Below are positions 5,300-37,325 of a stretch of 64,000 bases of DNA, piece by piece. Position 1 is the first letter of the stretch. Every line of letters starts with the position of its first letter. Made by a program: the position numbers and the translations under genes. The stretch lies in the sequence record OK254197.1, one strand, 5' to 3'. The DNA is from Escherichia phage PNJ1902. The notes under the pieces are model-generated. The model was not told where the DNA came from and did no database searches. It saw only the letters and a list, made by a program, of their open reading frames with translations.

Positions 5300-6067
5300 T
5301 TATTCAGCAGCCGCAGCTTTTGCATCCAGTTTAGCACGCTTAGCGGCACCATCATAGTCCTTAGCAACCAGACCACGACGAGACAGCATAGATTTAACAC
5401 CGCGCTCAGACTTACCAGTTTTCTCAGCGATCTCAGCAACAGTCATGTTAACCAGATCCAGACCTTCTAACAGATCTTCACGAGTTTTAGCACTTGAAGT
5501 TTCCTGTACCGGCATAGCAGCGATACGACCTTCACGAAGCAGGCTCAGAGCTTTACCACGGATCTGCTTGATATTACGACCGAAGTGAGCAGCGATAGCT
5601 TCAATAGTAGCACCAGCAACAACCTGATTAACAAAATCAGTTTCTTCATCCGGAGTAAAGGAACGAACAGCGGCAGCTTTTTCGGTTGGCTTAACAGAAG
5701 CGGTCATTTCCAGACTCAGGATCTTACCCTGTACCTGTTTAGCACCGAACTGACCACCAGCTACAGCAGCAGCGATTTCAGCATAGGTATACTGACCAGC
5801 ATGAGCGTTCAGGAAATCAACCAGTTCAGCTTCCTGCTCAGGAGTCCACGGGGATTTCTGTACTTCGTTAGCTTTTTGTACTTCAAAACCTTCTTTACGC
5901 AGTTTAGAGCCAACAGAGCGAGCAGTAACATCTTTGCCAGTTTCAGCAGCCAGTTCAGCAGCGATAGCAGCTACTTGTTCTTGAGAGATTACAGCAACAC
6001 CCAGAGCAGTGGCTTTTGCTTTCAGAGACTCAGTTACACCTTCTACGTTCCAGTTCAGTTTAGACAT
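5300..6067 (-). CDS. Ala/Lys-rich DNA-binding protein (T5 D5-like)
   Basis: 255 aa, repetitive Ala-rich composition; position between ligase and helicase as in T5. Confidence 0.4.
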   Translation of the reverse strand: MSKLNWNVEGVTESLKAKATALGVAVISQEQVAAIAAELAAETGKDVTARSVGSKLRKEGFEVQKANEVQKSPWTPEQEAELVDFLNAHAGQYTYAEIAAAVAGGQFGAKQVQGKILSLEMTASVKPTEKAAAVRSFTPDEETDFVNQVVAGATIEAIAAHFGRNIKQIRGKALSLLREGRIAAMPVQETSSAKTREDLLEGLDLVNMTVAEIAEKTGKSERGVKSMLSRRGLVAKDYDGAAKRAKLDAKAAAAE

Positions 6068-6842
6068 TATTATTTTTCTCCAATAGTTCTTTAATCGACA
6101 GGATTTCTATCCCATTCGTTTCGGCTTTCTTATAAGATGAGGAAGAACGTTTTGATTCATCCTCACAGATTAGGTATTTGACGTCTTTAGTAACGGATTT
6201 CTTAACCGTATACCCTAGACTTTCTAAATAGTTTGTTGCATCCGTTCTATTTGCAAAATCTTGCAAAGATCCGGTAATACATACCGCGATTCCTTTTGGC
6301 TGGGCAACTAATTCATCTGTAATGATGATATTAGCTTTTGCACCTCTGATACCTGTTGAGAATTTCCACGGTAGTTCGATAACATCCTTGCCTTGTGGGG
6401 AATTTAGCCAGGCTTTATAGTTTTCTCCAGCCTTACCGTCAGCCTTCACATCGTGGAAGCTAGTGCAATTTTGGGATAATTTCTTTGCTGCAACCTCTCC
6501 AATTAGAGGGATTCCTAAAGAACCGAGAACTGAACCAAAGTCAATGTCTCCGCGAACTTTAGTATTTAATTCGCTAATTAACTTAGCGGCAACCTTGCTA
6601 CCCACGGCTCTAACCAAATCTTCTTCGGTTAGGTAAAATAGTTCTGAAATCTTCGTCAGCTCCAGCTTCTCAATAGTTTTTGGGCCAAAGCCCTTTAACT
6701 TCATTTTTGAACAGAAGTTCTCAATTAACTTACTTGATTGCGCTGGACAGTTGGACTTATTCCGACAGAATAATTGTCCGTTGACAAGATCTAGCTTAGA
6801 ACCACAAGAGGGACATTGTGTTGGAATTTCGATTTTCATCAA
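6060..6842 (-). CDS. NAD-dependent DNA ligase, C-terminal part (Zn finger, HhH, BRCT-like)
   Basis: 260 aa; CPSCGSKL...C Zn ribbon, HhH-like GFGPKTIEKL. Confidence 0.8.
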   Translation of the reverse strand: MMKIEIPTQCPSCGSKLDLVNGQLFCRNKSNCPAQSSKLIENFCSKMKLKGFGPKTIEKLELTKISELFYLTEEDLVRAVGSKVAAKLISELNTKVRGDIDFGSVLGSLGIPLIGEVAAKKLSQNCTSFHDVKADGKAGENYKAWLNSPQGKDVIELPWKFSTGIRGAKANIIITDELVAQPKGIAVCITGSLQDFANRTDATNYLESLGYTVKKSVTKDVKYLICEDESKRSSSSYKKAETNGIEILSIKELLEKNNNV

Positions 6843-7041: not shown

Positions 7042-8013
7042 TTAATCGTATACTCGCTCTACGATGCACGGGATTACACCACCAGCACGAATTACTCGAA
7101 TCTGGCAACCGATCTCTAGATCGAGAGAGTTAATATAATCAACGTTATTAAGAGTCGCTTTAACAATTGTAGCATCATCAATAATTACCGGTTCGAAATA
7201 ACCAACTGGAGTTACTTTACCAGAAGCCCCTACCTGCCATTCAACTTTAGTAAGAGTTGTAATCTCGCCTTCTTCATCCTCTTTAATAGCGAATGCTCCA
7301 CGAGGAAATTTATTAGTCCAGCCTTCACGGAAGAATTTGTTGTTGTCATTAATACGAACAACTTTACCATCCGTCGGAATCCATTTAAAGAAGGAACGCA
7401 CATTAACAACTGTTAAGAAGTCCTCATTCTCTAGCCAGAGCATATCTTTTAAATACGATTCTGTAATACCTACAGATTCAGCAGAACACTGGATACCGTA
7501 TGCAACGAAGATTAGACCACCTTCTCCGATACGTTGTACGAAATCATCACTATCTTTGAGGTTAATAGCACCAGAGGCAAAGTTACGTTTATTTTCTACT
7601 TCTTTTGTAATTAGAACTTCACCAGTGATTTGAGTAGGTACTTTTTGGGAAATCTTTTTAGGGATGTTCAGCAATCTTACGTTGCTTGTGACATCATTCC
7701 CTAGAATGCCATTACCACGAGTTAGTGCTTGAACAAATTCGCCATTAATATATAACAGAGAAATCGCACAACCATCTAACTTATCAGTTTCTACCTGACC
7801 TAATGGATTAAACGGAGGTTTATCTCCACGATTATAATAAACTTTCTGTAAAGAATACATACGATACAGATGTGGAATATCTCCCTTAGGCCCAATCTCT
7901 TCTTCTAACGGAAATCTTTTAATCAGACGATCATATTCTTCGTCAGAGATTAAAGACATGCCTTGATAATATGCTTCTTGACAGCGTTTAATAAATTCTT
8001 TTACATTAGTCAT
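7042..8013 (-). CDS. NAD-dependent DNA ligase, N-terminal part (adenylation + OB fold)
   Basis: 323 aa; adenylation motif KLDG (…TDKLDGCAISLLY…). Confidence 0.8.
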   Translation of the reverse strand: MTNVKEFIKRCQEAYYQGMSLISDEEYDRLIKRFPLEEEIGPKGDIPHLYRMYSLQKVYYNRGDKPPFNPLGQVETDKLDGCAISLLYINGEFVQALTRGNGILGNDVTSNVRLLNIPKKISQKVPTQITGEVLITKEVENKRNFASGAINLKDSDDFVQRIGEGGLIFVAYGIQCSAESVGITESYLKDMLWLENEDFLTVVNVRSFFKWIPTDGKVVRINDNNKFFREGWTNKFPRGAFAIKEDEEGEITTLTKVEWQVGASGKVTPVGYFEPVIIDDATIVKATLNNVDYINSLDLEIGCQIRVIRAGGVIPCIVERVYD

Positions 8014-10548: not shown

Positions 10549-13312
10549 CTAGCTCTGCCATTGCTTCATCATGCATATGTTTCTCCTCATCAGTCATAAA
10601 CTTATATGGGATTGGCATACACTCGATTTTACAATAGGTTCTGTACCAGTCTACAATATTCTCCGTGTTCATATCCTTACCAATACCCATCATACCAAGA
10701 TACATTCTCGCATATTTTGGGTTAGCACTCTGACCTGTTTTAAGGAAGAAATCTTTCTTCTTACCTTTCAGAGCTTCTATGAATGGTTTGATAGTGACAT
10801 TTGAACACTTCTTAATATCTTCCCAGAACATCTCGTGCATTTTATGGAAGAATGCCGCTCGATCATTCGGTTTATCTTTGATATATTGTTCAACGTGCTC
10901 AACTGTTACATCTTTAATAGACTCAAGATGATAGTAGCGAACAAGAAGTAGTTTAGCCTCATACGCATCTGCATGGCGTGGAGCACAATAATCAGGAGTT
11001 GAATACAAAATGGCTTTGATTCGCTCTTCCGTATACTCTTTTCCTGCACCTTCGATAGTTCCCCAGCTTTCACTGAAAATATCAATAGTTGCACCCTGAT
11101 CAAGCAAGTAATAACGTAAGGTACTAGTATAGTTTCTAGATTCCAGCTCTCTACGACGTGCGTATAATTGCTGTGCTAACTCCAGCCAACCTTCATCAAT
11201 GTTATATTGTTCAGAACCTGCGGAGAATCCACTCGTAGATTTATCAATAAAATAATAAATGTTCTGAGCGCCACGGTCGCGCCTGATTGCTTGGAAACGC
11301 ATGTTTGGCGCTTGGTTACTGGTTCTAGTAATAACGAATACGTTATCAAAGTAGTTGAAGTCAACGCCACTCGTTACGGATGGACTACATAATAAGCAAT
11401 CAATTTGTTGATCAATTAGCTCATTAGTTGTGTAATCCAGAATACGTCGAATATCTACATCAGACGTAGAATTTGAGTGGATTTCCTTAACTAGGGCACC
11501 TGTATTACGACGTAATGCCATACCCTTCTCATTCAGTTCATCCGGCCCACAGTCAGATACTAGGATAGATTTCTCACCCATCTCTAGAGAAGTCTGAAGT
11601 GCAACCCAAATACTGGATTCATCCGGGAACTCATAAGCATGAGCTTTTGACAGCATCTTACGGTGATGGTTGTAAAATGCAACCGGTTTATCAAAATCAA
11701 TTAGAGAACCGTAGGCTTCAATCGTCTCAGCACTAATATCACCATCAGATAAGATTACAGTTTTAGCTGTCATGAGGATGTCACGTAGAACTTGAATACA
11801 TTCGCGACGTTGTTTAACAACGGGGGCGAATAATAGATCATTCATTACAGCGTCACATTCATCAATAAAAATGGTGTCTATTTGACCAATAAAACTCTTG
11901 AACTTATGCAAAGAGTGAATAGTTGTGGACATACGGTCAATAGCGCCACGCTTAAAATTAAGCATATCTACAGACTTATCATATTGTCCTGCACTAAATT
12001 TCTTAGCATTTGAAGATACCAGCGCTCTAGTATTTGTAACTGCTAAAAAGTTGCCAGGAAGAACACCTGCGTCCAGCCATTTAGTTACTGCCGTAGTTTT
12101 ACCAGTACCAAGACTTGCCTTAACAAATGTTATATGGCCTTTTGGGGGCACAATGTTAATCTTCAGGTATGGAACTTCTGGTGGAGAATCCACTTCTAAT
12201 TTCTTGAGTGGAACACCTTTCAGATTTAATGGAATCTCACGTTTAGAATTATTAACAAACGCTTTGAGAGCCTGCTTGCGACCGTTATTAAAGTAATCTT
12301 GAATATTACGACTATTATCTTTAGTTGCAATATATTCAGATAAAGCGGGTTTAATCTCACGTTCTAGCCATGCGAAATCAACACCATCCTCTAATGCTCT
12401 ATGGTATAGTTTGGGGATAATACGCAAGTACACCCCATCCTCAGCTTCTTCCAATTCGCTGATGGTTTCTTCTACTTTATCAGACGCGATCTTTTTGCCT
12501 TTAATTTGGTCAAGTAAGGAATAGAATTCCTCTTTAAACTCTCCTCTAGTTGTTTCATAATCAACCAGATTATTGGGCAAATTTACCTTCGAACCTTTAA
12601 CATACACCAGACGTGGCTTACTCTCCGCTTTAAACGGATCTACAATACCATCGCTAAATAAAGGGTCGGCAAAATAGTGAAGCTGGACAGATGAATAATA
12701 AGCTAAGTCGGCAATGTCAAAACCGAATTTTTGCTTACTACTATCGTTGATGGATGTAAATAAGAACTTTAGCTGACCCTGAGTTACCTTGACGTTAGAT
12801 TCTAGCATTAAGTGCATTCGGATACCTGGTTTTAGGCCAGCCGAAGATGATGCATGAGCAATAAACCCTGCATCAAGAGGAAACATGTCCTCACTAATAC
12901 TATTCAACATCTTAATAATGTGGCGGGCCATGCCTACAAGATTAAACTTGTCGTACCCACCGGTATCTAGGATACCATCCACGTCCATAGCAATAATATT
13001 GCTGGGGTTGGATACATTAAAGTTACCTTTCTTACGCCGCACGTTATTTTTAGGTGCAAGACATCGACCTCGTACCGCAACGATATGAGGATCAGACGTT
13101 AAACGTCTCATAAGTGGTAACATTTCGGCAAGGCTTTGCGGGTCATGCTCTTCTATTACATCAAATTTGAAGGGCATAGAGGCTGGTTTACCTTCTGGAT
13201 GCTCTTTCGAGAATCGCTTGGCAAAGGTATAATCCTCCGCTTTGATTTCTCGCCAAATACCTGTTGCTAAATCACGAGAAAATCCGGCGTGACCTTGAAG
13301 AATAGAAAACAC
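10523..13312 (-). CDS. Large SF2-type helicase / putative replication-origin-binding protein
   Basis: 929 aa; Walker A GTGKTT, Walker B-like IFIDECD. Confidence 0.6.
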   Translation of the reverse strand: MFSILQGHAGFSRDLATGIWREIKAEDYTFAKRFSKEHPEGKPASMPFKFDVIEEHDPQSLAEMLPLMRRLTSDPHIVAVRGRCLAPKNNVRRKKGNFNVSNPSNIIAMDVDGILDTGGYDKFNLVGMARHIIKMLNSISEDMFPLDAGFIAHASSSAGLKPGIRMHLMLESNVKVTQGQLKFLFTSINDSSKQKFGFDIADLAYYSSVQLHYFADPLFSDGIVDPFKAESKPRLVYVKGSKVNLPNNLVDYETTRGEFKEEFYSLLDQIKGKKIASDKVEETISELEEAEDGVYLRIIPKLYHRALEDGVDFAWLEREIKPALSEYIATKDNSRNIQDYFNNGRKQALKAFVNNSKREIPLNLKGVPLKKLEVDSPPEVPYLKINIVPPKGHITFVKASLGTGKTTAVTKWLDAGVLPGNFLAVTNTRALVSSNAKKFSAGQYDKSVDMLNFKRGAIDRMSTTIHSLHKFKSFIGQIDTIFIDECDAVMNDLLFAPVVKQRRECIQVLRDILMTAKTVILSDGDISAETIEAYGSLIDFDKPVAFYNHHRKMLSKAHAYEFPDESSIWVALQTSLEMGEKSILVSDCGPDELNEKGMALRRNTGALVKEIHSNSTSDVDIRRILDYTTNELIDQQIDCLLCSPSVTSGVDFNYFDNVFVITRTSNQAPNMRFQAIRRDRGAQNIYYFIDKSTSGFSAGSEQYNIDEGWLELAQQLYARRRELESRNYTSTLRYYLLDQGATIDIFSESWGTIEGAGKEYTEERIKAILYSTPDYCAPRHADAYEAKLLLVRYYHLESIKDVTVEHVEQYIKDKPNDRAAFFHKMHEMFWEDIKKCSNVTIKPFIEALKGKKKDFFLKTGQSANPKYARMYLGMMGIGKDMNTENIVDWYRTYCKIECMPIPYKFMTDEEKHMHDEAMAELGARNDSEE

Positions 13313-13810
13313 AACAATACTCCTGTGTTGGTTAATCGAAAATCTTTTCTTTAGGACTATTCAGAAAGAATAGAACAACTATTACTACTGTTTACGTAAA
13401 CATCAATTATCATCAAGCAATATGAATAAGTTATCATATCTCAGTGCTGTGCTCTCTTCGCTCATATACAGAATAGAACCTAGGTCATTGGCCGCTAAGC
13501 CGATTCTATTTGTCCTCACTATCCTATTGGTAGGTGACTACTGTACGTGCCGCCATTCGCTGCTCTTTTCGTTCGCACCCCCATATAAAGCTCTGCCTAT
13601 ATAACGAGCTAAATATGCACGGTTTGGATTTACCTTTCCGAATTCAGGGTACACAGATCACTTAATTGAAGATTAACTAATGCAATATAAACACTAGTAA
13701 TAGTTAAAACAACCCTTAATGGGGCAGCCTAACTGTTCCGTATCGCGGATTGTAAACAAGAAAAATTAGCAAAATCAATTTTTACTAATGTCTCTCAATT
13801 CAATATAAAT

Positions 13811-13839
13811 ATTATATCAAGATTTTGGGCATCCGGCAA
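13811..13839 (-). promoter_or_regulatory. sigma70 promoter
   Basis: RC: TTGCCG-17-TATAAT; fires toward helicase gene across ~480 nt ORF-poor leader. Confidence 0.55.
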
Positions 13840-13933
13840 GTAAAATTTTCCGGATGGTGCTATCAGTGTCTTTGAGCATAGAGAAAACCGAGCCAAAATG
13901 ACTCGGTAATCAGAGTTCAGCTAATAAAAATCA

Positions 13934-14323
13934 TTAGTCATTTAATCCCGGAACATAGATCCCAACACGGCTTAACTGTTCTTTAGCTTCTGCGAGAATA
14001 TCTGGAGTGTACTCCCAAATATCATCTTCCACCTGTAAAAGATGGGGCGAACAACCGTCACCAGGCACACGACATATGGCCAAACCACGTGGATGGAATA
14101 TAGAGAAGTTTAGGGCAACAATTAAACCCATAGCGGACAATTCATTCCAGTCCATCTCCCACTCCCTGGCATATCCAGATAGGAAAACGCCAATGCATGG
14201 ATCATCTATTTGCTGCTCAGGAAAAGTGAAGGAGGCTTGTCTTACCCCCAACCAACGTTGTAGCAGCTTCTCCGCACGTTTCACCAAACTAGGGTCAATC
14301 TGACGCCAATATACTTGTTCCAT
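13934..14323 (-). CDS. Hypothetical protein (paralog of 14333-14761)
   Basis: 129 aa; shares PCIG ... MGLxxALN(F/Y) ... (Y/M)(V/I)PGL motifs with neighbour. Confidence 0.55.
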   Translation of the reverse strand: MEQVYWRQIDPSLVKRAEKLLQRWLGVRQASFTFPEQQIDDPCIGVFLSGYAREWEMDWNELSAMGLIVALNFSIFHPRGLAICRVPGDGCSPHLLQVEDDIWEYTPDILAEAKEQLSRVGIYVPGLND

Positions 14324-14332
14324 TCTGCCTCC

Positions 14333-14761
14333 TTAAGCAGTTAAACCTGGGATCATATACCCGAAACGGCGAAGTTTCTGAATCCCCTCATTTACTTCTT
14401 CCGGTGAGTAAGACCAACCATAACGTTCATTAACCTGAAAACCAGGAGATTCACTAGTTTTATAGTTAACAACGAGGCGATGCTTAACAGGCATAAACAG
14501 CTTATAATTTAACGCAAAAACTAAGCCCATTTCGTCTAACTCTTTCCAGCCGACAATCTCTTCAAGACCCTCCTCTACCTGAACAATTAAACCAATACAG
14601 GGAGCCTCATCAATATCATCTTTAAAAGCAAAGGAGATTTCGTTATTCTCACACCATATTTTCAAGGAATTAATAGCCTCATTATACAGGCTAGAGGGGA
14701 GAGTACGCCAAAAGTTAACTAAAATTGGGTTAACTTCTTTAGAGAAGACATTATTGAACAT
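14333..14761 (-). CDS. Hypothetical protein (paralog of 13934-14323)
   Basis: 142 aa; same motif set as neighbour. Confidence 0.55.
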   Translation of the reverse strand: MFNNVFSKEVNPILVNFWRTLPSSLYNEAINSLKIWCENNEISFAFKDDIDEAPCIGLIVQVEEGLEEIVGWKELDEMGLVFALNYKLFMPVKHRLVVNYKTSESPGFQVNERYGWSYSPEEVNEGIQKLRRFGYMIPGLTA

Positions 14762-14763
14762 AT

Positions 14764-15270
14764 TTACACCTTAAATTGTTGTAAGGATTTACACATTTCA
14801 AGATCTGGGCTAAATTCTAGCATATAGCTAACAGCTTTTAAATCTTGAAGATTTATCCCAGTCCTACCGTTGACTATAACCGTTGGATACTGATACATCA
14901 TAGCACCCGCATCATCAAGCACACACCAATGTTTGAGCTTATGATTTTCAACAAAGCGAAGAACAGAATTACCCCTAGATAATCCACCCCCAGTAAAATC
15001 CGTTGTACCAAGAAAACGATCGATAAGACCTAATCTGGTCATAATCTGAACGTTCTCCATTTCATTTCTGACAGAAAACCAAGATGATACTCCAACAATC
15101 ATTATCGGAGAAGGACGAATAAAGTCCTGAAAAGCCTTGAGAAGCGGTTTGAAAACCCAATCACTTCCAAAGAAAATCTTTTCATCATCAGGTGCATGAT
15201 GGTGGGAGATGCTCGAATTGAGCACCCCATCAATATCTAGAAAAATAATTGGAGTATTACTTATTTCCAT
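14764..15270 (-). CDS. HAD-superfamily phosphatase-like protein
   Basis: 168 aa; N-terminal FLDIDGVL (DxDG motif I) and VLDDAG (motif IV-like). Confidence 0.5.
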   Translation of the reverse strand: MEISNTPIIFLDIDGVLNSSISHHHAPDDEKIFFGSDWVFKPLLKAFQDFIRPSPIMIVGVSSWFSVRNEMENVQIMTRLGLIDRFLGTTDFTGGGLSRGNSVLRFVENHKLKHWCVLDDAGAMMYQYPTVIVNGRTGINLQDLKAVSYMLEFSPDLEMCKSLQQFKV

Positions 15271-15466
15271 TTTTGTTCCTTTCTAAGAACGTATCATACT
15301 CAACCGTATCAACATATATAACACCATAGTCATCGGATTTATAGTCCATTTCCCACAGCTCACAGCGATAGCACCAACTACCATCCGCCCACACAAATAT
15401 ATCATCGGGATGTGTATACACAGGTTTAACTATGGACATATCTGTTTCCCTTGCTTCTCGACACAT
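15257..15466 (-). CDS. Hypothetical protein
   Basis: 69 aa ORF. Confidence 0.4.
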   Translation of the reverse strand: MCREARETDMSIVKPVYTHPDDIFVWADGSWCYRCELWEMDYKSDDYGVIYVDTVEYDTFLERNKNGNK

Positions 15467-16262
15467 AAGGTCTACCCTCTAAATGAGCTTCTACACGAGC
15501 AATAAAATTAGGGTCACTAAAAGCATCTACCGCACCTTTACTCCAGTAGGGGATACCACGTTCTTCTAGCTGGTACATCTCACTACGAGTCATACCTTGA
15601 TAGCCCGGTTCCGCCGCTAGGGCACTATCATAGTAGTTAACAACCATAAGTTTCGCAGCAGTCAAATTAAGAACAGGAAATAATTCCCAGTAGAAGTTAA
15701 TTACTTGGTTAGAGCAACCAACCACAATGATCATATCTTGACTGGTAATACCATCAAAAACATTATACATTTCTGCGTATGCAGGAGCATGCTCCCCAAA
15801 GAAGATTACATTAGGTTTAACCCATTTATAATCATCTGGGTCAATAGAATTGTATCCTACATCAATAATCCGTTTATTGCTACTATTGTAGCTATCAGCT
15901 ACAACAACCTCTTTTAAATATCCGTGAATGTGCAGAATGTCACTATGTGGAACGCCAGCACGCTCAATAAGGTCATCAACGTTGGTAGTCAAGTTTACTA
16001 CTTGACCTGGATATTGTTTATACCATTCACCAATACGCAAATGCGCAAGATTGGGTTCAACAGTTTTTAGCTCTTCACGACGCTTGTTGTAAAACATATG
16101 GGTTTTATGGTAAAAATTACCACGAAAGGCATGAATATTACATACTTCTTCTAGGTCATAATCATCCCACAGTGCTTTACCACTAGCAGTATCAGTACGA
16201 AAAGCTCGTACACCACTTTCAACACTCAAACCTGCACCGCTAATAATAATTAATCTACGCAT
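15426..16262 (-). CDS. Sir2 (sirtuin)-family protein, apparently lacking Zn-binding cysteines
   Basis: 278 aa; GAGLSVESGVRAFR (sirtuin GAGISxxSGIPxFR), TNVDDL, catalytic-type HG; no CxxC pairs. Confidence 0.6.
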   Translation of the reverse strand: MRRLIIISGAGLSVESGVRAFRTDTASGKALWDDYDLEEVCNIHAFRGNFYHKTHMFYNKRREELKTVEPNLAHLRIGEWYKQYPGQVVNLTTNVDDLIERAGVPHSDILHIHGYLKEVVVADSYNSSNKRIIDVGYNSIDPDDYKWVKPNVIFFGEHAPAYAEMYNVFDGITSQDMIIVVGCSNQVINFYWELFPVLNLTAAKLMVVNYYDSALAAEPGYQGMTRSEMYQLEERGIPYWSKGAVDAFSDPNFIARVEAHLEGRPYVSRSKGNRYVHS

Positions 16263-16476
16263 TTTTCACCTGTTCTCTGAAGTTTTGCCCAATACTGTCT
16301 AATAGCTCAGCTAATTCTTTATTGCCTTTCTCCATGAAGGTATTGGCAATAACTTCTAGCATAGTAGCGCAGGATTCAACACCATCCTTATAGCCAGTCT
16401 CCCAGTGCTGCATTAATGCGTTTTCCAAAGCGGAGTTTAAACCCTTATCTGGCAGCATCAGCTTCGAGAATGCCAT
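16255..16476 (-). CDS. Hypothetical protein
   Basis: 73 aa ORF. Confidence 0.4.
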   Translation of the reverse strand: MAFSKLMLPDKGLNSALENALMQHWETGYKDGVESCATMLEVIANTFMEKGNKELAELLDSIGQNFREQVKNA

Positions 16477-16648
16477 AAAGTTTCTCCTCTAGTTCCATAA
16501 CACGATTTTCATAAGAGGCACGCAACTTTTCAATTGCCAGCGCACGCACTGTAACCTCATTAGAATTAATAGCTAACTGGGCCAGGTCTTCTGTTTCCAT
16601 ACGTCCGTTGTAAATTAAGCGATATTTAAGATGTTTTACGTTTTTCAT
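16445..16648 (-). CDS. Hypothetical protein
   Basis: 67 aa ORF. Confidence 0.4.
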   Translation of the reverse strand: MKNVKHLKYRLIYNGRMETEDLAQLAINSNEVTVRALAIEKLRASYENRVMELEEKLYGILEADAAR

Positions 16649-16657
16649 TCTTGTTCC

Positions 16658-16939
16658 TTAGTTCTGTACTGTAAACTCATTCTTATCACAGTGAGCATAA
16701 TAATACCCATACATACGATAAATTTTCACAGCCTTAGTAGACCCCTTCGATTCTTCATAATCAATCCAGAGCCACTTGTCTTTACCTACATAATGTACCC
16801 GAAACTTCTTAACTTTCTTATCATTCCATGTTGCAACAACACGACGATAATCAAATCCTCCCAACCAATCTAGAGCCTTACGTTCTTCGCTAGGCTCTCC
16901 AAAATGGGAGACATCTACTTTAGGAAGCAACTCACTCAT
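16658..16939 (-). CDS. Hypothetical protein
   Basis: 93 aa ORF, first gene after promoter 16968-16996. Confidence 0.5.
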   Translation of the reverse strand: MSELLPKVDVSHFGEPSEERKALDWLGGFDYRRVVATWNDKKVKKFRVHYVGKDKWLWIDYEESKGSTKAVKIYRMYGYYYAHCDKNEFTVQN

Positions 16940-16967
16940 AGCTTTCTCCTCTCAAATTTATAAATCT

Positions 16968-16996
16968 ATTATATATAAATTTTTGGCTGAAAGCAA
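16968..16996 (-). promoter_or_regulatory. sigma70 promoter (T5 early type)
   Basis: RC: TTGCTT-17-TATAAT + ATAAATTTGAGAGGAG leader. Confidence 0.7.
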
Positions 16997-17038
16997 ATAA
17001 AATAAAAGCCAGGTCGACTAGCAACCCGGCTGATTAGC

Positions 17039-18913
17039 TTATTTAGCTCGAATATCCTGATGTTTCACCCTGCCCATCACCTCGTGCTGTTTGCCGGGGT
17101 TAAATGGACGAGCACCCGGATTTCCAAGATACCCACAAACTCGACGAGTTACTTCAAGAGTTTCGGGGTCATGATTACCACAGATAGGGCACTTAAATCC
17201 ATCTTCGGATGCTATTGTTTCACCTAAGAATCCACATTTACCACAAGAATCCACTGGGGTATTAATACCGAAATAATGAACCTTACTAGCAGCATAATTA
17301 ATAACCCATTCCAGTGCATCTGGGAATCGTTTCATATCCGGTAGTTCTACATAGGAAATGCACCCACCAGAAGCAATAGGAGTAAAGTTAGATTCATAAT
17401 CAAATTTCACATTGGGAGCAACTTTACGTTCTACATCAAGGTGGTGCGAGTTAGTGTAGTATCCTTTGGACAGAATATCTTCATGCTCTGGGAAATATTC
17501 ACGGTCTAGACGACAAAAACGGTCACATAGGGATTCTGATGGTGTAGCATACAGGCTATAACCTAATTTAGTTTCTTCCTTCTTCTGATCGACTCTATCC
17601 CGCATGTATTGCAATACACGCTGAACAAACTTGATGCAGGTCTCGGACATTGTGTCTACCTCTTTGCCAAACATGAACTGTAGCATTTCATGGCAACCAA
17701 TATACCCTAGAGATACAGAAGCACGGTTATAGAAATGATCGAATACATATTCATCAGGCCCCAAGCGTAACCCAAAGGCTCCTGACATATAGAGGATAGG
17801 TGCAGCTTTAGCTTGAATGTATTTTAAGCGATCAACTCTCCATTCCAACGCTTTTAATGCTGTATCCACACGTAGCTCAAGCAAATCAAAGAATAGATCA
17901 ATATTTCCTTCAGCTTCGATAGCAATTCTAGGCAAGTTTACAGAAACAACACCTAAGTTATTACGACCGGCAGTTTCACCATCTTCTGTAGCAGCTAGGA
18001 ATGAACGGCAGCCCATAGAAACTTTGTAGTCTCCAGTAACCTCTACAACCTTGTCATAGCTGATATAATCTGGATACATACGTTCAGCAGTACATTTCAT
18101 AGCTAACTTCTTGATGTCATAATTAACATCTCCTGGTTTCATATTTACTCCATCACGAAGTACAAATACCAGTTTCGGGAAGATAGCTGTACGTTTATTG
18201 ATACCTAAACCATCCATGCGTACTTTCAGTATTGCTTTCTGTACTAGACGTGCTTCCCAAGAAGTTCCTAGACCAAAACCAAAGGTAATAAATGGACTCT
18301 GACCATTAGAGTTGAACATGGTATTGATTTCATATTCTAAACCCTGACAAGCGTCATAGACTTCTTTTTCAGTCATCTCCGTAGCCATTACGGATGCTTT
18401 GGCTTCATCCTTAGTCCAACGTTTTGCAAACGCATGATTTTTATCATAGGATTTACGTACATAAGGGGCTAATACTTCATCAAGGCGATCTACAGAAGTA
18501 CCACCATACTGATGGGAGCTAACCTGAGTGATAATCTGAGCAGTAATAGCCGCCGCAGTAGTGATAGAGTTTGGAGTGCTAATTTCAGCATTACCAACCT
18601 TCATACCATTCTTCAACATATCTTCCAGAGCTACCAGACAACAGTTAGTCATACCTAATGCAGCATAATCAGCATCATGGAAATGAATATCCCCAATCAT
18701 ATGAGCATTTCGAATCTGAATTGGCATTTCTTCTAGAATCAGATACTTACTCAATTCACCTGCAAGCATATCCCTTTGTGTAGGGAAACGTTCTGAGGGT
18801 TTATTAGCATTATTAAACAGCAGCTCTTCATCTGCTGACCCTTCGATAATCTCTTTGCAGTTTCTAATTAACGCCTGCATTTCTTTATACTTTAATTCTT
18901 CATTGCGATTCAT
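17039..18913 (-). CDS. nrdD: Anaerobic ribonucleoside-triphosphate reductase (class III)
   Basis: 624 aa; C-terminal glycyl-radical motif RVCGYLG and Zn-ribbon CGKCGF...CPICG. Confidence 0.8.
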   Translation of the reverse strand: MNRNEELKYKEMQALIRNCKEIIEGSADEELLFNNANKPSERFPTQRDMLAGELSKYLILEEMPIQIRNAHMIGDIHFHDADYAALGMTNCCLVALEDMLKNGMKVGNAEISTPNSITTAAAITAQIITQVSSHQYGGTSVDRLDEVLAPYVRKSYDKNHAFAKRWTKDEAKASVMATEMTEKEVYDACQGLEYEINTMFNSNGQSPFITFGFGLGTSWEARLVQKAILKVRMDGLGINKRTAIFPKLVFVLRDGVNMKPGDVNYDIKKLAMKCTAERMYPDYISYDKVVEVTGDYKVSMGCRSFLAATEDGETAGRNNLGVVSVNLPRIAIEAEGNIDLFFDLLELRVDTALKALEWRVDRLKYIQAKAAPILYMSGAFGLRLGPDEYVFDHFYNRASVSLGYIGCHEMLQFMFGKEVDTMSETCIKFVQRVLQYMRDRVDQKKEETKLGYSLYATPSESLCDRFCRLDREYFPEHEDILSKGYYTNSHHLDVERKVAPNVKFDYESNFTPIASGGCISYVELPDMKRFPDALEWVINYAASKVHYFGINTPVDSCGKCGFLGETIASEDGFKCPICGNHDPETLEVTRRVCGYLGNPGARPFNPGKQHEVMGRVKHQDIRAK

Positions 18914-18971: not shown

Positions 18972-19022
18972 CAATATTTTACTATAAAGTTCTGTAACAT
19001 GATCTGAGTCAAAAAATTTTAT

Positions 19023-19051
19023 TTGCCAATCTCTATTAAAAATTGTATAAT
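19023..19051 (+). promoter_or_regulatory. sigma70 promoter
   Basis: TTGCCA-17-TATAAT. Confidence 0.55.
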
Positions 19052-19163
19052 CACGCACTCGTGCACGCGATATAAAATGATTATCTAGTATCACACATCT
19101 CACGTTAAAAGCAAGCAAATTTTTTATTTAAATGCAATATCATAGGCTTATTTAAAATTGTAG

Positions 19164-19192
19164 TTGCTTTTTACTGTATATATTGGTATAAT
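19164..19192 (+). promoter_or_regulatory. sigma70 promoter for phoH operon
   Basis: TTGCTT-17-TATAAT. Confidence 0.65.
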
Positions 19193-19256
19193 ATATTTGT
19201 AAGTTGATAAACAAGATCTTTTTGTTGATCCTCTGTTAGCGAAGTACACTATAGGA

Positions 19257-20018
19257 GTGTTATTTATGGGAAAAGCACGTCAAAAAAGAGAGAACCGCAA
19301 TGGTTCAAGAAAGCGTGGCAACAAATATGAGAACAACGTAATTCAGGCTGATTTTTCTAATGATTACGCTAATCCAGTTGCTAAATCCCTAGTAGGTAAA
19401 AACCGCGAGCAAAAATCATATATCAATATGATCAAGAACAACACAGTGACTGTGGGTATCGGTGAGCCGGGTACTGGTAAAACCTTTATTCCGTCCGTTC
19501 TTGCAGCTCAGGAACTCGTAGACATTCACTCAGATATTGAGCAAGTGATCCTCGTACGTCCTAATGAACCTCTAGGTAAGTCTCTTGGTATGCTTCCTGG
19601 TGATCTAGCGGAAAAGCTAGAGCCTTGGTTGGAACCAATAGCTGATGGTATGAAATGGGCCATCGGCGATCATGCATATAAGGGATATGTCGAACGTCAG
19701 AAAATTAAATTTTTGGCTATCGAACATGCTCGTGGCAGAACTTTCAACAACTCCTATGTAATTGTCGATGAAGCTCAGAATATTTCCGTTGAGGCAATGA
19801 TTTGTCTCCTAACTCGTGTAGGACAAGACTGCCGTTTAATTATCTGCGGAGATATAGCTCAGAAAGACATTAAAGGTGACTCAGGTCTAGCACTCCTTAT
19901 GGAAGTCTATGAAAAATACGAAAATGCCCCATTCTCAATGATCGAATTGATTGATAACGTTCGTTCTGCTGAGTCTAAAGCATTCTATGACATTTTTAAA
20001 GACATGGGGAAGGTGTAA
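19257..20018 (+). CDS. phoH: PhoH-like ATPase
   Basis: 253 aa; Walker A GEPGTGKT; Walker B VIVDEAQN. Confidence 0.8.
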   Translation: MLFMGKARQKRENRNGSRKRGNKYENNVIQADFSNDYANPVAKSLVGKNREQKSYINMIKNNTVTVGIGEPGTGKTFIPSVLAAQELVDIHSDIEQVILVRPNEPLGKSLGMLPGDLAEKLEPWLEPIADGMKWAIGDHAYKGYVERQKIKFLAIEHARGRTFNNSYVIVDEAQNISVEAMICLLTRVGQDCRLIICGDIAQKDIKGDSGLALLMEVYEKYENAPFSMIELIDNVRSAESKAFYDIFKDMGKV

Positions 20019-32548: not shown

Positions 32549-32623
32549 CGGGGTGTAGTCTAAGGGAGAGGCAGGAGTCTTCTAAATTCCTTTATGCAGG
32601 TTCGAATCCTGTCACCTCGGCCA
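32549..32623 (+). tRNA. tRNA-Arg (anticodon UCU), tentative
   Basis: Hand fold: acceptor CGGGGTG/CACCTCG, anticodon stem GGAGT/ATTCC loop CTTCTAA, T-arm GCAGG-TTCGAAT-CCTGT, encoded CCA. Confidence 0.45.
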
Positions 32624-32657
32624 ATTTTATTAACTGTAACTAAAACAAAGGAAATAT

Positions 32658-33605
32658 ATGTTTGCTACTAAAAACACTAAAGAACTGACTTATGAGCAAA
32701 AATTAATGCGTAATATCAAACGTTGGGGTATTGGGGCTGCAGTTGGTTTGGTAGGTTTAGTTCTGGCTCTTAACTCTTACACTGTTGTTCAAGACGGTAC
32801 TGTTAAAACCCAGACTTTCCTGGGTAAAGTTGACCCTAGCCCAGTATTACCCGGCTTTCATATTGTAAATCCTTTTGCTTCTTTCGATACTTTTAGTACT
32901 AAAGATATTGCTCTAAAATTAGATAAACTTCAGGTTCCTAGTCAGGATAAGTTTAAATCCACTGTTGACCTGACTGTTATGTTGCAGTTTGATGGTTCTA
33001 AGGCACCGATTAACCGTATTAATGCAGGTACTCAGGATCAAGCATTAGACAAATATGTAACTGAAAAATTACTGTCTACTATTCGTGAGTTTGGTAAGTC
33101 TGTACCTAAAGCACAAGATTTATTTGATGCTAAAATTCAGGCTCAATTGCAAACCGCAATTCAACAGGAAGTTGAAGAGTATGCACGCCCATATGGTTAC
33201 ACAGTTAAGCAGGTGTTTCTTCAGGATATTACTTTGCCACCGGTAATCATGGAACAGGTACAGAATACCAAAGTTCGTGAAGAGCAAGTTAACGCTGCGA
33301 AAGCTGAACTTGCCCGCGTTGAACAGGAAGCACAGCAAAAAGTTAAACAAGCAGAAGCAGATCGTGAAGCTCGCAACAACCAAGCTATTGCTAATGAACG
33401 TGACGCAGATGCTAAACTGTACGCAGCTAAGAAAGAAGCTGAAGCTAACGCCGCACTGCAACGTACCATTACTCCTGAGATGATTCGTTGGAAACAACTG
33501 GAAGTTGAAATGATTCGTGCTCAGAAGTATCAAGGTGGTGTACCTCAGACTGTAGTTGGCACTGGCTATGATGGTCAAATGATTATGGATATGCGTAACA
33601 AGTAA
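32658..33605 (+). CDS. SPFH/band-7 (prohibitin-like) membrane protein
   Basis: 315 aa; N-terminal TM helix, SPFH-like core, C-terminal Ala/Gln/Glu coiled coil. Confidence 0.55.
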   Translation: MFATKNTKELTYEQKLMRNIKRWGIGAAVGLVGLVLALNSYTVVQDGTVKTQTFLGKVDPSPVLPGFHIVNPFASFDTFSTKDIALKLDKLQVPSQDKFKSTVDLTVMLQFDGSKAPINRINAGTQDQALDKYVTEKLLSTIREFGKSVPKAQDLFDAKIQAQLQTAIQQEVEEYARPYGYTVKQVFLQDITLPPVIMEQVQNTKVREEQVNAAKAELARVEQEAQQKVKQAEADREARNNQAIANERDADAKLYAAKKEAEANAALQRTITPEMIRWKQLEVEMIRAQKYQGGVPQTVVGTGYDGQMIMDMRNK

Positions 33606-33630
33606 TAGTTACACGTAATCTTCGAACTAA

Positions 33631-33662
33631 GCCCGCGTTTTCTCCGAGAGCGCGGGCTTTTC
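33631..33662 (+). terminator. Intrinsic terminator
   Basis: GCCCGCG...CGCGGGC hairpin + TTTT. Confidence 0.7.
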
Positions 33663-33683
33663 TGTATTTAAGGCAAAAGAAAA

Positions 33684-33712
33684 AGCCCCTAAGTCTTTCG
33701 ACTAGGGGCTTT
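33684..33712. terminator. Bidirectional hairpin terminator candidate
   Basis: AGCCCCTAAG...CTAGGGGCT flanked by A-run upstream and T downstream; lies between convergent genes. Confidence 0.5.
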
Positions 33713-33929
33713 ACTGTTTGGTTCTTTAGAACCATATACTCTTGTTACAGCAACCACCCATACGGGAGGCCAATCTTGACTGAAAATCTACTCTAGGGGG
33801 CAGGATAAGAGTAGGCTTAAAGGCAAACGGATTGAACGCCGGTATTTGCGTAAACATTGCTGGAGAGCAACAACGTGCTACAGGCATTGGGCAGCACGAA
33901 ACAGATTTTCTGCAACACATAATTCCTCC

Positions 33930-34346
33930 TTAGGAGTTATTACCACCATTTTGAGCTTTTGCAACTTGGCTTTGGCAGAAGCTATTAAACTTACCCATAA
34001 GTGATACAAGCTGCTTCCCATCCTCTGTCTTTGCGAAGTCTTCGAAAAGGGCTAGTACTGCCTGTCCTTCCGCAGAAACCTGCGGTTGTTGGGTTTGTTG
34101 CTGAACTTGCTGCTGCGGCATCTGTTGCTGCATTTGTTGGGGCATTTGCGACTGCCCGCTCATTTGCTGCATCATTTGCATAGGACTCACACTTCCAGGG
34201 TTTTGCTGGAGTTGTTGCTGCATCTGTTGCGCTTCTGCTAAACGCTGTTGCAATTGTTGTAAGTAGGGGTTATCCAGACCCGGAATGGGCTGCTGGGAGC
34301 CCATACTTTGATTAAGTCCGTTATTTACAAAACCATATTTACTCAT
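33930..34346 (-). CDS. Gln-rich low-complexity protein
   Basis: 138 aa; long Q/M-rich repeats. Confidence 0.45.
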   Translation of the reverse strand: MSKYGFVNNGLNQSMGSQQPIPGLDNPYLQQLQQRLAEAQQMQQQLQQNPGSVSPMQMMQQMSGQSQMPQQMQQQMPQQQVQQQTQQPQVSAEGQAVLALFEDFAKTEDGKQLVSLMGKFNSFCQSQVAKAQNGGNNS

Positions 34347-34367
34347 AATGGGCTCCTCCCCTTAATA

Positions 34368-35354
34368 TTAAGCCGGCAGTTTAGCCTGCAGACCAGCCAG
34401 AGTCTGAGTGATAGCACCAAGACTTAAAGCGATTTGATTAATTACCTGACCGTTAGCACCACTACCCGCAGCGATTGCTTCACGTAGGCGACATGCGTCT
34501 AACTCGTCCTGGATACGTGCAGTAGTTACACCAGCGATCGCAGTCTGAAGTTCACAGCAACATTCAGCGATCTGACGTTCCAGAGAGTTCTGGTTAGCAC
34601 ACATCTGAGCCTGAACAGCGGCAAACTGGTTATTAGTTTGTAAAGTCTGCTGGAAAGCGATCTGTGCAGAATCAAACTTATCTTGTGCACGAGCTATCTG
34701 GTTAGCTGCGAAAGATTGATCAATCTGGCGAGAAAGATCGAACTGACCCTGAATAACGTTGCGAGTTTCCTGGCAGATCTGATTAGACAGATTAGCACCT
34801 GTACCATAGATCGTAGTTAGTACAGACTGAGTATCACGGCTCTGGTTTTGGGATGTCTGGCTAAAACCATTGTTAACTGCGCTTAAAACAGCCCCAGTAC
34901 CCTGGTTAGCTTCTGTACGAGTAGTGTTAATAGCTGCTAGAATACTAGCGGTATCTTGATTCTGAAGTACTGCATCAACTGCGCTACCATCACCAACTAC
35001 ACCACGTCCACCGAATCCACCGAAACCACCGAATCCGCCTGTTAATAGAGCACCGATTAGGATAGCTCCGAATAGTCCCATACCTTCACCACCGAAAGCA
35101 CCTGCGTTTGCTGGGTAACCACCTAGTAGGCCAGGGAAGCCACTAGTGAATACGTTTACTGGTTCTTGCATTTTATGTTTTCCATGTTTATGACAATGTT
35201 CATCATCGTCATCTTCTTCATCATCATGTTCACGATGTTTTTCTTCGTAGGCTCTGACCTTCTCCCACTTTTTCTTATCTGATTCCTCGTGACGGTGCAG
35301 TTCTGCTGCAACGCTAGCGACGGTCTCAGGACTCTTAGCTACTTCTTCTGTCAT
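34368..35354 (-). CDS. Gly-rich membrane-associated hypothetical protein
   Basis: 328 aa; acidic/His-rich N-terminus, GGFGGFGGFGG glycine-zipper segment, Q/A-rich coiled region. Confidence 0.5.
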   Translation of the reverse strand: MTEEVAKSPETVASVAAELHRHEESDKKKWEKVRAYEEKHREHDDEEDDDDEHCHKHGKHKMQEPVNVFTSGFPGLLGGYPANAGAFGGEGMGLFGAILIGALLTGGFGGFGGFGGRGVVGDGSAVDAVLQNQDTASILAAINTTRTEANQGTGAVLSAVNNGFSQTSQNQSRDTQSVLTTIYGTGANLSNQICQETRNVIQGQFDLSRQIDQSFAANQIARAQDKFDSAQIAFQQTLQTNNQFAAVQAQMCANQNSLERQIAECCCELQTAIAGVTTARIQDELDACRLREAIAAGSGANGQVINQIALSLGAITQTLAGLQAKLPA

Positions 35355-35419
35355 TTTTTAACACCTCCTAGTATATAGAAAATGTGTGTCTCTTTGATCA
35401 CTCATCCATAACATATACT

Positions 35420-35447
35420 TTACACTACCCCAACAAAAATGTCAAGG
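35420..35447 (-). promoter_or_regulatory. Putative sigma70 promoter
   Basis: RC: TTGACA-17-TAAAGT. Confidence 0.35.
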
Positions 35448-35561
35448 GGTCTTTAAAAATTGCCCCCGGATTTTTAGTGGGGTCACAAATTTTGGTCCTC
35501 ACCACTTATCTGCTACCCTTAAGTGCCCTATGATTTTCCTCTAAAAAGTTAAAAATTTTGA

Positions 35562-35590
35562 TTGCTTGAATGCTAAATTCTCTGTATAAT
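35562..35590 (+). promoter_or_regulatory. sigma70 promoter (T5 early type)
   Basis: TTGCTT-17-TATAAT + ATAAATTTGAGAGAGG leader. Confidence 0.7.
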
Positions 35591-35620
35591 ATATCTATAA
35601 ATTTGAGAGAGGAATAAGAT

Positions 35621-36139
35621 ATGAATGTTGATGAGCTAACACAGCACCTCTTATCTAGAGGATTTGATACAGATAAATATCATTGCTGGTTAAGCCCGGA
35701 AGGGTGGCTAACAGTCCCATTGTATGACTTCTCTGGGATGTTGCGGGGCTATCAGACGTATAATCCTTCTGCTCCAAAAGGGCATGGTAAGTGCCCCTTT
35801 GAGGCTAAATATTTTACCTACTCCACTACACAGTGTGTATGGGGACTAGAAACTCTCAATGGAGATGAAAAAGTAGTATTGATTGCTGAATCTGTATTTA
35901 AGGCAGTTGCATTACATAATGCTGGTTATCCAGCCCTAGCAATGTTGGGTTCTACCCCAGGAAAAGCGTTATTAAAGCAACTGAAATTACTACCTTTTAA
36001 ATTGGTAGCTGTCGGGGATAATGATCCTGCGGGTGAAAAATTTGCTAGAAAATTGAACGGCTTTGTTTCTCCTGTAGATGTGGATGAGATGTCTACCGAA
36101 AACTTGAAAAATTTTCTTGCTATGAAGCTAAATTTCTAA
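35621..36139 (+). CDS. Toprim-domain protein
   Basis: 172 aa; conserved Glu (LIAES) and DxD (GDNDPAG). Confidence 0.5.
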   Translation: MNVDELTQHLLSRGFDTDKYHCWLSPEGWLTVPLYDFSGMLRGYQTYNPSAPKGHGKCPFEAKYFTYSTTQCVWGLETLNGDEKVVLIAESVFKAVALHNAGYPALAMLGSTPGKALLKQLKLLPFKLVAVGDNDPAGEKFARKLNGFVSPVDVDEMSTENLKNFLAMKLNF

Positions 36140-36160
36140 TATAATATATCTTATAAATTC

Positions 36161-36249
36161 GGAAGAATAGCATAACGGTATTGCAGCAGATTGCTAATCT
36201 GTCGGTTTGAAATATAGCCTTGTGGGTTCGATTCCCACTTCTTCCGCCA
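36161..36249 (+). tRNA. tRNA-Ser (anticodon GCU), class II
   Basis: Hand fold: acceptor GGAAGAA/TTCTTCC, loop TTGCTAA, long variable arm, T-arm GTGGG-TTCGATT-CCCAC, CCA encoded. Confidence 0.55.
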
Positions 36250-36255
36250 GATTTT

Positions 36256-36333
36256 GGTTCTCAAGCTCATATGGTATGAGCACCCGGCTCATAACCGGAA
36301 GGTACGTAGGTTCGAATCCTCGGGGAGCCACCA
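36256..36333 (+). tRNA. tRNA with CAU anticodon (Met/Ile2), tentative
   Basis: Acceptor GGTTCTC/GGGAGCC (2 GU), loop CTCATAA, TTCGAAT T-loop with weak 3-bp T-stem. Confidence 0.45.
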
Positions 36334-36351
36334 ATTAAATAGAGGTCACAA

Positions 36352-36540
36352 ATGGATCTATATATAGTTTATGTTGTGTTTATTCAAGATAGAGAATACC
36401 CGGATGAATATAAAAAAGGATATAGGCTAGCCAGAGCTACCTCTGAAGCCCAAGCTATGGATAAAGTGGCAGATTATATGATTACGGTAGAAAACGTACA
36501 CTATATAGACTACCTCGAAGCCTCAAAAGTAATTGACTAA
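36352..36540 (+). CDS. Hypothetical protein
   Basis: 62 aa ORF. Confidence 0.45.
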   Translation: MDLYIVYVVFIQDREYPDEYKKGYRLARATSEAQAMDKVADYMITVENVHYIDYLEASKVID

Positions 36541-36549
36541 GGAGACTAT

Positions 36550-36735: not shown

Positions 36736-36836
36736 TACCTATGAAACTAAAAGATTATTATATTGGTTGGTTTGTGGGACTAGTAGTAGGATTTTCACTA
36801 GGCTATAATATGTATCAACTAATAAACTGATTACAC

Positions 36837-37295: not shown

Positions 37296-37325
37296 CTCCT
37301 CCAAACAGAATTTTTAAAAATGTAC

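Follow-up and report, generated by a model that had tools for sequence, protein, structure and literature searches.

A CobB/SIRT5-like sirtuin lacking the zinc-ribbon cysteines in an early operon of T5-like phages and its possible role in RNA repair

An early operon of eight genes

The 64,000-nucleotide stretch of DNA from Escherichia phage PNJ1902 analyzed here (OK254197.1; the whole stretch is referred to as 'the window') contains a minus-strand operon that encodes a sirtuin (Sir2), a phosphatase of the HAD superfamily, two paralogous proteins of the family DUF7415 and several small proteins (Table 1). The original prediction, made from the sequence alone, described one promoter, three small open reading frames (ORFs) upstream of Sir2 and, together with Sir2, the phosphatase and the paralogs, seven genes in all. 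The promoter and the three ORFs, of 93, 67 and 73 amino acids (aa), are recovered as described, and the seven genes are real and belong to a single unit, but an eighth gene, encoding a protein of 69 aa, had been missed. The promoter is located between the terminator of the upstream gene nrdD and the ribosome-binding site of the first gene of the operon; its -10 element is perfect, and because only three of the six positions of the -35 element match, it is not listed by a consensus scan. The gaps between the genes do not exceed 10 nucleotides (nt), and four of the junctions overlap, an arrangement most naturally read as a single transcription unit: from the promoter to the closing terminator, the eight genes form one early transcription unit.

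A sequence search with the locus and its surroundings (3.7 kb) yields matches in 531 phage records, the best of which are Salmonella and Escherichia T5-like phages (Demerecviridae, Markadamsvirinae) with ~96% identity; the window comes from a T5-like phage. The locus is also present in an IMG/VR genome of 121,750 bp (L053). In Bf23 and NBEco001, two annotated relatives, the operon is flanked by nrdD, the gene for anaerobic ribonucleotide reductase, on one side and by the gene for the replication-origin-binding protein on the other side, and lies in the early region, among genes for nucleotide metabolism and replication. Every ORF of the operon matches a conserved phage protein family in PHROG, with E-values from 1e-30 to 1e-121; given these matches and the 531 records that contain the locus, the ORFs are not chance products.

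Table 1. Coordinates of the operon features in the window, in the direction of transcription
Feature	Coordinates	Strand	Evidence
Intrinsic terminator of upstream nrdD, 5' limit of the unit	17007..17031	-	10-bp stem with 6 GC pairs, then T-run; Bf23 terminator annotated at the same place
Sigma-70-type promoter, TTGCTT-17 nt-TATAAT	16968..16996	-	Read from the sequence; Bf23 predicted early promoter at the equivalent position
Gene 1, 93 aa, phrog_7953	16658..16939	-	ORF and PHROG
Gene 2, 67 aa, phrog_5236	16445..16648	-	ORF and PHROG; in 23/23 close T5-like loci
Gene 3, 73 aa, phrog_5827; overlapping both gene 2 and the start of Sir2	16255..16476	-	ORF and PHROG
Sirtuin (Sir2), 278 aa, CobB/SIRT5-like, active site intact by residues	15426..16262	-	Pfam SIR2, PDB sequence search, alignment, AlphaFold2 (AF2), Foldseek
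69-aa gene (60 aa from the second ATG), phrog_5116	15257..15466	-	ORF and PHROG (8e-30)
HAD-superfamily phosphatase, 168 aa, HAD_SAK_2	14764..15270	-	Pfam (2e-20); motif FLDIDGV
DUF7415 paralog A, 142 aa, more diverged copy, FHP changed to FMP	14333..14761	-	Pfam DUF7415 (4e-36); alignments
DUF7415 paralog B, 129 aa, retains the consensus W-N-E-L-S..G-L..L-N..F-H-P-x-G-L-A..R	13934..14323	-	Pfam DUF7415
Intrinsic terminator closing the operon	13887..13907	-	9-bp stem with 5 GC pairs, then T-run; Bf23 terminator annotated at the same place

A divergent sirtuin that retains the active-site residues

The sirtuin matches the Pfam family SIR2 with an E-value of 8e-25 (88 bits compared with the cut-off of 24). 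Its closest solved relatives in a sequence search of the PDB are Escherichia coli CobB (1s5p, 1.8e-17), archaeal Sir2 and SIRT5, and the AlphaFold2 model (51 sequences, pLDDT 88) retrieves the same proteins with Foldseek, CobB first (E 1e-17, TM 0.70/0.85), followed by archaeal Sir2 and SIRT5. In an alignment of 121 family members, the residues G9-A-G11, S13, F21-R22, Y58, R61, N94, D96 and H113-G114 are invariant, H113 being the catalytic histidine. The pair Y58/R61 aligns with the Tyr-x-x-Arg pair that is typical of class III sirtuins (FYNKRR in the phage protein, FYNARR in CobB). The catalytic residues, whose absence would have counted against the original prediction, are all in place, and the modeled fold matches that of CobB rather than an unrelated one.

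The Sir2 motifs and the absence of the Zn-ribbon cysteines noted in the original prediction both hold under the Pfam match and the alignment. In the region of the Zn-ribbon quartet, there is no conserved cysteine among the 121 aligned relatives, and the protein of the window has no cysteine at residues 114-150; the loss of the Zn ligands is, therefore, a property of the whole clade. The description of the domain as 'cysteine-less' is nevertheless wrong, given that C41 and C183 are present and both are conserved in the clade. In the predicted structure, a three-stranded sheet is kept at the position of the Zn-ribbon (E114-122, E131-134, E147-152).

The phage protein shares with CobB and SIRT5 the predicted fold, the NAD-binding and catalytic residues and the Tyr-x-x-Arg pair, but is only ~24% identical in sequence, lacks the Zn-ribbon cysteines, carries a C-terminal extension of ~70 aa and is found in phages only. 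With the CobB equivalog models (NCBIfam NF040867 / PRK00481), it scores 90-100 bits, which is below the cut-offs of 243-320. Judging by its residues and its modeled fold, it appears to be a phage-specific branch that has diverged from the CobB/SIRT5 type with its catalytic site intact.

Given the family name, the sirtuin might be an NADase that exhausts the NAD of the host, so as to shut it off or to exclude superinfecting phages, in the manner of the defense Sir2 effectors (ThsA, DSR1/DSR2, SIR2-HerA, SIR2-APAZ), with which it shares the superfamily and the NAD substrate; the Zn module is absent from the defense Sir2 domains as well. However, none of the top 50 Foldseek matches of the sirtuin model is a defense-type Sir2, none of the eight operon proteins matches a PADLOC defense model (E 0.01 or better), and Pfam detects no SLOG, HerA, APAZ/pAgo or DSR C-terminal domain among the neighbors of the sirtuin, which thus comes without a sensor or partner domain of the defense systems and is nearer to the deacylases. 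Moreover, strictly lytic phages conserve the gene, and the DNA ligase of the phage itself requires NAD. This NAD-dependent ligase is split into two minus-strand genes (6060-6842 and 7042-8013), one for the adenylation and OB domains and the other one for the HhH and BRCT domains, which makes phage replication itself dependent on NAD. A defense-type NADase is, accordingly, highly improbable and was rejected on the strength of the Foldseek and PADLOC results.

These observations also bear on the wider claims of the original prediction. A link of the operon to NAD or ADP-ribose chemistry is reasonable, but the specific idea of an NADase finds no support in a deacylase-like protein without a PADLOC match, and the kinship to the NAD-consuming defense Sir2 proteins is not borne out, all top folds being CobB, archaeal Sir2 or SIRT5. 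The proposal that the operon counters NAD-depletion defenses is likewise unsupported: the NAD-reconstitution (NARP1-like) genes are absent from the window and from the annotated T5-like relatives, and the phage itself relies on NAD through the split ligase.

Sirtuin chemistry would also permit an ADP-ribosyltransferase of the SirTM or DarT kind, with a host protein or nucleic acid as its target, by which the cell would be taken over or protected, and such a role is assigned to other phage sirtuins in the comparative study of Iyer, Burroughs, Anantharaman and Aravind (Viruses 2022, PMC9503650). The ADP-ribosylating SirTM sirtuins, however, keep the Zn domain and have Gln in place of the catalytic His (PMC4518038), whereas the phage clade does the opposite, with the His kept (H113 is invariant) and the Zn ligands lost. 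Furthermore, SirTM genes are recognized by an adjacent Macro gene, and Pfam detects no Macro domain in the operon; nor does a Macro, NADAR or other reversal enzyme adjoin the sirtuin in the T5-type operon. Such an activity is very unlikely, and its SirTM-like form was rejected because the catalytic His is retained.

The HAD phosphatase, the DUF7415 proteins and the overlapping small ORF

The gene downstream of the sirtuin, predicted to encode a HAD-like phosphatase from the motif DIDGV, does so (in full, FLDIDGV): the protein belongs to the Pfam family HAD_SAK_2 ('HAD domain in Swiss Army Knife RNA repair proteins'), with 74 bits compared with the cut-off of 27.5. The HAD motifs, namely, I (D12-x-D14), II (S62/S63), III (R99) and IV (D119-D120), are invariant in 14 homologues with identity down to 36%. 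A search for relatives among solved structures by sequence returns none, even at E-values up to 10. The phage protein resembles the 3'-phosphatase domain of T4 Pnkp and the HAD domains of the SAK proteins in being a HAD of the DxDxT type with all four motifs, but is a standalone protein of 168 aa that is not fused to a kinase or ligase. In RefSeq, the HAD gene is mislabeled 'Sir2 (NAD-dependent deacetylase)' (for example, L036 21365-21871), and this label has spread to many T5-like genomes. The source of the two 'Sir2' genes that RefSeq records of T5-like phages list is the name of phrog_18062, which is called 'Sir2' yet covers the C-terminal half of the HAD protein; on the HAD gene, the label is an unsupported annotation.

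The two paralogs of the original prediction are confirmed as members of DUF7415 that are 32% identical to each other, with Pfam scores of 108 and 123 bits compared with the cut-off of 27. An exhaustive profile search across 1.8 billion representatives finds just 54 relatives, and all the full-length forms that could be placed are inside T5-like Sir2 operons. The ~60-aa core that carries the consensus (Table 1) stands alone in other phages and elsewhere forms fusions with either a thymidylate-kinase-like or a DUF3850/ASCH domain. The Pfam model, which covers 53 residues, passes for each half of the protein separately, but an internal duplication is not confirmed by profile comparison of the two halves (hhalign probability 3.5%, not significant). 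DUF7415 is a phage-restricted family with a confidently predicted fold that has no solved relative. The legacy label 'exonuclease (ACLAME 70)' carried by DUF7415 proteins has no support, and literature searches on HAD_SAK_2 and DUF7415 returned no papers.

The 69-aa gene overlaps the 3' end of the Sir2 gene by 41 nt and the start of the HAD gene by 14 nt. Its homologues are found at the same overlapping spot after Sir2 in four further loci (L072, L073, L096, L107). This chain of overlaps suggests that the sirtuin, the 60-69-aa ORF and the HAD phosphatase are translationally coupled.

Gene neighborhoods of the sirtuin in other phages

The original prediction treated the locus as unexplored, but its Sir2 is annotated in hundreds of GenBank records, and the neighborhood has been published along with a prediction of function. 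In their account of phage sirtuins, Iyer et al. (PMC9503650) delineate a distinct clade with three conserved neighborhoods; in one of these, in T5-like phages typified by Escherichia phage SP15, the sirtuin is paired with a 'Swiss-army-knife' HAD. Because the DUF7415 protein of SP15 is 90% identical to that of the window, the operon described here is the SP15 locus of that study. The locus and its predicted function are thus already known, the function being a prediction, and the description of this neighborhood in PMC9503650 does not refer to the DUF7415 pair, the overlapping 69-aa ORF or the loss of the Zn ligands. The present analysis adds the clade-wide loss of the Zn ligands in a sirtuin that, by its residues, keeps the full class III active site; the conserved small ORF overlapping Sir2 and HAD; the tight linkage of Sir2 with DUF7415 and the DUF7415 fold without a solved relative; the juxtaposition of the HAD with NARP1-like genes in another phage; and two annotation errors.

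The gene context was surveyed in 63 viral loci around Sir2 homologues, with the neighbors scored by custom profiles. The survey independently reproduces the type 2 and type 3 neighborhoods of PMC9503650, and the operon of the window, where the sirtuin adjoins a SAK-type HAD, is of type 3. In the T5-like loci, DUF7415 adjoins Sir2 in all 31 cases (in two copies in 29 of these), and the HAD is present, next to Sir2, in 28. Erwinia phage KEY and one Logan contig keep the HAD and Sir2, with the HAD upstream of Sir2, and lack DUF7415; in Serratia phage Slocum and others, DUF7415 accompanies Sir2 but the HAD is missing. Sir2 is thus common to all these arrangements, whereas the HAD and DUF7415 are facultative partners.

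Beyond the T5-like phages, ~14 loci in the ~145-kb phages of the KpS8/Ro1 type (Klebsiella/Raoultella) contain Sir2 orthologs with ~60% identity, in the order Metallophos, T4-type RNA ligase 1, cREC, AAA_33 kinase, a 74-aa gene, Sir2 and DNA ligase, with overlapping gene ends. Prs-like and NAPRT-like genes and NADAR are usually found within 8 kb of Sir2 in these phages, and such genes recur within this distance of Sir2 in about 12 loci; the Prs-like and NAPRT-like pair, which resembles NARP1, serves to rebuild NAD from ADP-ribose. A survey that started from the HAD yields 46 more distant HAD_SAK_2 loci without Sir2; in three of these, the HAD gene is 1.6 kb from a Metallophos-Rnl1-kinase cluster, and in two, it is near a NAPRT-like gene. 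Overall, the same two themes, RNA end-healing and sealing and NAD regeneration, recur around both Sir2 and the HAD.

The second theme raises the possibility that the operon acts on soluble NAD and ADP-ribose (ADPR) metabolites in counter-defense, with the HAD as a phosphatase of ADPR-1''-phosphate (ADPR-1''P) or a related compound, a non-homologous analog of the Macro-domain Adpp by which NARP1 phages overcome NAD phosphorolysis of the RES type, and with the sirtuin processing or exchanging an NAD-derived molecule. In Serratia phage vB_SmaM-ChuuTotoro (L037 5001-8217), the HAD_SAK_2 gene overlaps the start of a Prs-like (PRPP-synthetase-like) gene that is followed by a NAPRT-like gene; L135 and L142 also have a NAPRT-like gene close to the HAD, and L099 and L101 have one adjacent to Sir2. 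There is a published precedent for a phosphatase in such company: NARP1 operons encode the Macro-domain phosphatase Adpp, which converts ADPR-1''P to ADPR (10.64898/2026.01.28.702374, a study that does not concern this sirtuin), and the phosphatase gene of ChuuTotoro occupies the same operon position beside Adps/Namat-like genes, which suggests, by analogy, that a non-homologous HAD phosphatase fills the slot of the Macro-domain enzyme there. A further pathway, NARP3, has been reported in a BASEL phage, again without bearing on this sirtuin (PMC13464706). Nevertheless, the characterized Adpp has a Macro fold and not a HAD fold, the T5-like phages, that of the window included, have no NARP1-like genes to make use of ADPR, most HAD_SAK_2 loci have no NAD-salvage neighbor, and the sirtuin is left without a job. 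This possibility is quite unlikely for the operon of the window.

Among the remaining loci of the survey, Escherichia phage ECO340P2 encodes an Acb2/Tad1 hairpin-domain protein, of the anti-CBASS/anti-Thoeris sponge family (L032 1940-2215), 4 kb upstream of the Sir2 ortholog. This ortholog has no recognizable RNA-repair neighbors.

A possible NAD-dependent step in RNA repair

The function that we tentatively put forward, at somewhat less than an even chance, is that of Iyer et al.: the sirtuin would supply the NAD-consuming step of an end-healing module for polynucleotides, most likely tRNA or other RNA. According to the section of PMC9503650 that deals with this clade, the sirtuins are predicted to remove 2'-phosphates from RNA in a KptA/Tpt1-like repair reaction. 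The likeness to Tpt1/KptA would lie in the proposed reaction, in which NAD and RNA 2'-PO4 yield nicotinamide and ADP-ribose cyclic phosphate, and in the analogous company of RNA ligase, kinase and phosphoesterase. The analogy is functional only: the Tpt1 fold is unrelated to that of sirtuins, there is no sequence similarity, and SIR2 is the sole Pfam match of the phage protein, with no homology to the PTS_2-RNA (Tpt1/KptA) fold. We know of no sirtuin for which an activity of the Tpt1/KptA type has been demonstrated.

The reactions of sirtuins and Tpt1 are alike in that an oxygen of the substrate attacks C1' of the nicotinamide ribose, and a neighboring ribose hydroxyl resolves the adduct. The retained His113 would fit the second, adduct-resolving step, which makes the chemistry plausible. 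By analogy with the Tpt1 steps outlined in the abstract of PMC11417386, an oxygen of the phosphate monoester (2'-PO4) on damaged RNA would attack C1'' of NAD, with the departure of nicotinamide; His113 would then activate the ribose 2''-OH, and the adduct would be resolved into clean RNA and ADP-ribose cyclic phosphate, so that the overall reaction would be that of Tpt1/KptA carried out on a sirtuin scaffold. The HAD phosphatase would either remove a terminal 2'- or 3'-phosphate from the RNA or dephosphorylate the ADP-ribose-phosphate by-product. For this by-product, the yeast route runs through Tpt1, Cpd1 and Poa1; Poa1p is an ADPR-1''P phosphatase (cited in 10.64898/2026.01.28.702374). The DUF7415 proteins and the small ORFs would be accessory factors, for which substrate binding or regulation can be guessed. 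A Tpt1-like reaction, which spends NAD and yields ADPR-phosphate, would also explain the recurrence of NAD-regenerating and ADPR-processing neighbors.

Several lines of evidence favor a role in RNA repair. The sirtuin is likely to be catalytically competent, given the invariant active-site residues and the CobB-like predicted fold. The genomic context supports this role in two independent phage lineages, through the pairing with HAD_SAK_2 in the T5-like phages and through the RNA-ligase/kinase/phosphoesterase cluster in the ~145-kb phages. Additional support comes from the HAD-Sir2 pair that persists after the reversal of gene order in phage KEY and the Logan contig, and from the distant HAD_SAK_2 genes that lie 1.6 kb from Metallophos-Rnl1-kinase clusters without Sir2. 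The publication of the same prediction by Iyer et al., in the part of their study devoted to this clade, is independent support. The 21 tRNA genes of the phage could provide the substrates. These genes, which cover 18 amino acids, occupy 32549-44287 on the plus strand and include tRNA-Lys(UUU), tRNA-Tyr and tRNA-Glu, species of the kind that host anticodon nucleases commonly target.

Other observations weigh against a role in RNA repair. The main weakness is that the annotated T5-like phages contain no RNA ligase, polynucleotide kinase or cyclic phosphodiesterase, so that the source of a 2'-phosphate in these phages is obscure. The HAD and DUF7415 are each missing in some relatives, as noted above, and, as genes for nucleotide metabolism abound in this early region, chance may account for part of the observed proximity. 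No experiment that tests a phage sirtuin turned up in literature searches. Finally, the acyl-lysine pocket is kept or conservatively replaced in comparison with CobB (A76 to C41, Y92 to Y58, R95 to R61, I131 to V95, and the FGE loop), and because this pocket looks intact, a protein deacylase stays a strong rival.

Under this alternative, the sirtuin would be, in line with its annotation, an ordinary NAD-dependent lysine deacylase (deacetylase or desuccinylase) that acts early in infection to remove inhibitory acyl modifications from proteins of the host or the phage, and the neighboring genes would be unrelated or only loosely related. Besides the conserved positions of the acyl pocket and the FGE loop, the case for a deacylase includes CobB and SIRT5 as the best matches in both sequence and fold, the invariance of the catalytic His, which is absent from SirTM-type enzymes, and the equally invariant Y58/R61 pair, which in class III sirtuins binds the carboxylates of succinyl and malonyl groups. 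Yet, the whole clade has lost the Zn-ribbon cysteines that characterize the described deacylase classes, the score of 100 bits is far below the NCBIfam CobB equivalog cut-offs given above, and the RNA-ligase, kinase, phosphoesterase and HAD_SAK genes that recur in two lineages are left unexplained. On balance, we consider a deacylase to be somewhat less likely than a role in RNA repair.

A more specific version of the RNA-repair reading, and a doubtful one, is that the zinc-less sirtuin would be the first sirtuin to act on a nucleic-acid phosphate, as a non-homologous replacement of Tpt1/KptA that spends NAD to take 2'-phosphates off damaged tRNA, with HAD_SAK_2 clearing the by-product (and feeding NAD reconstitution where NARP1 is present) and DUF7415 serving as a subunit for substrate recognition or regulation.

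Other features of the operon and the window

At the first position of the operon, T5-like phages carry one of two unrelated genes, the 93-aa form found in the window or a ~118-aa form. The latter is found in 11 of the 23 close relatives, as well as in L053, Erwinia phage KEY and Serratia phage Slocum (an example is L041 7239-7619).

Between the operon terminator and the gene for the origin-binding protein lies a 574-bp stretch (13313-13886) in which no ORF exceeds 60 aa. A strong promoter-like site is present there on the minus strand (TTGCCG-17 nt-TATAAT with an extended TG, 13839-13811), and the stretch may correspond to a long leader or to a small RNA that has escaped annotation; a search of Rfam at E-values up to 1 over 13000-17200, this gap included, gives no match. 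Elsewhere in the window, the sign of the GC skew changes at ~19000-20000, which coincides with the switch from minus- to plus-strand transcription in the divergent nrdD / phoH region.

Implications

If the prediction of RNA repair is true, the phosphate ends of RNA would be a new class of sirtuin substrates, and the T5-like phages would possess a compact NAD-dependent tool for RNA repair or counter-defense. Such a tool would be relevant given that the targets of many bacterial defense systems are tRNAs, which they cleave, or the NAD pool. With small proteins and with genetics available in T5 and its relatives of the BASEL collection, the role of the phage sirtuins is directly approachable.

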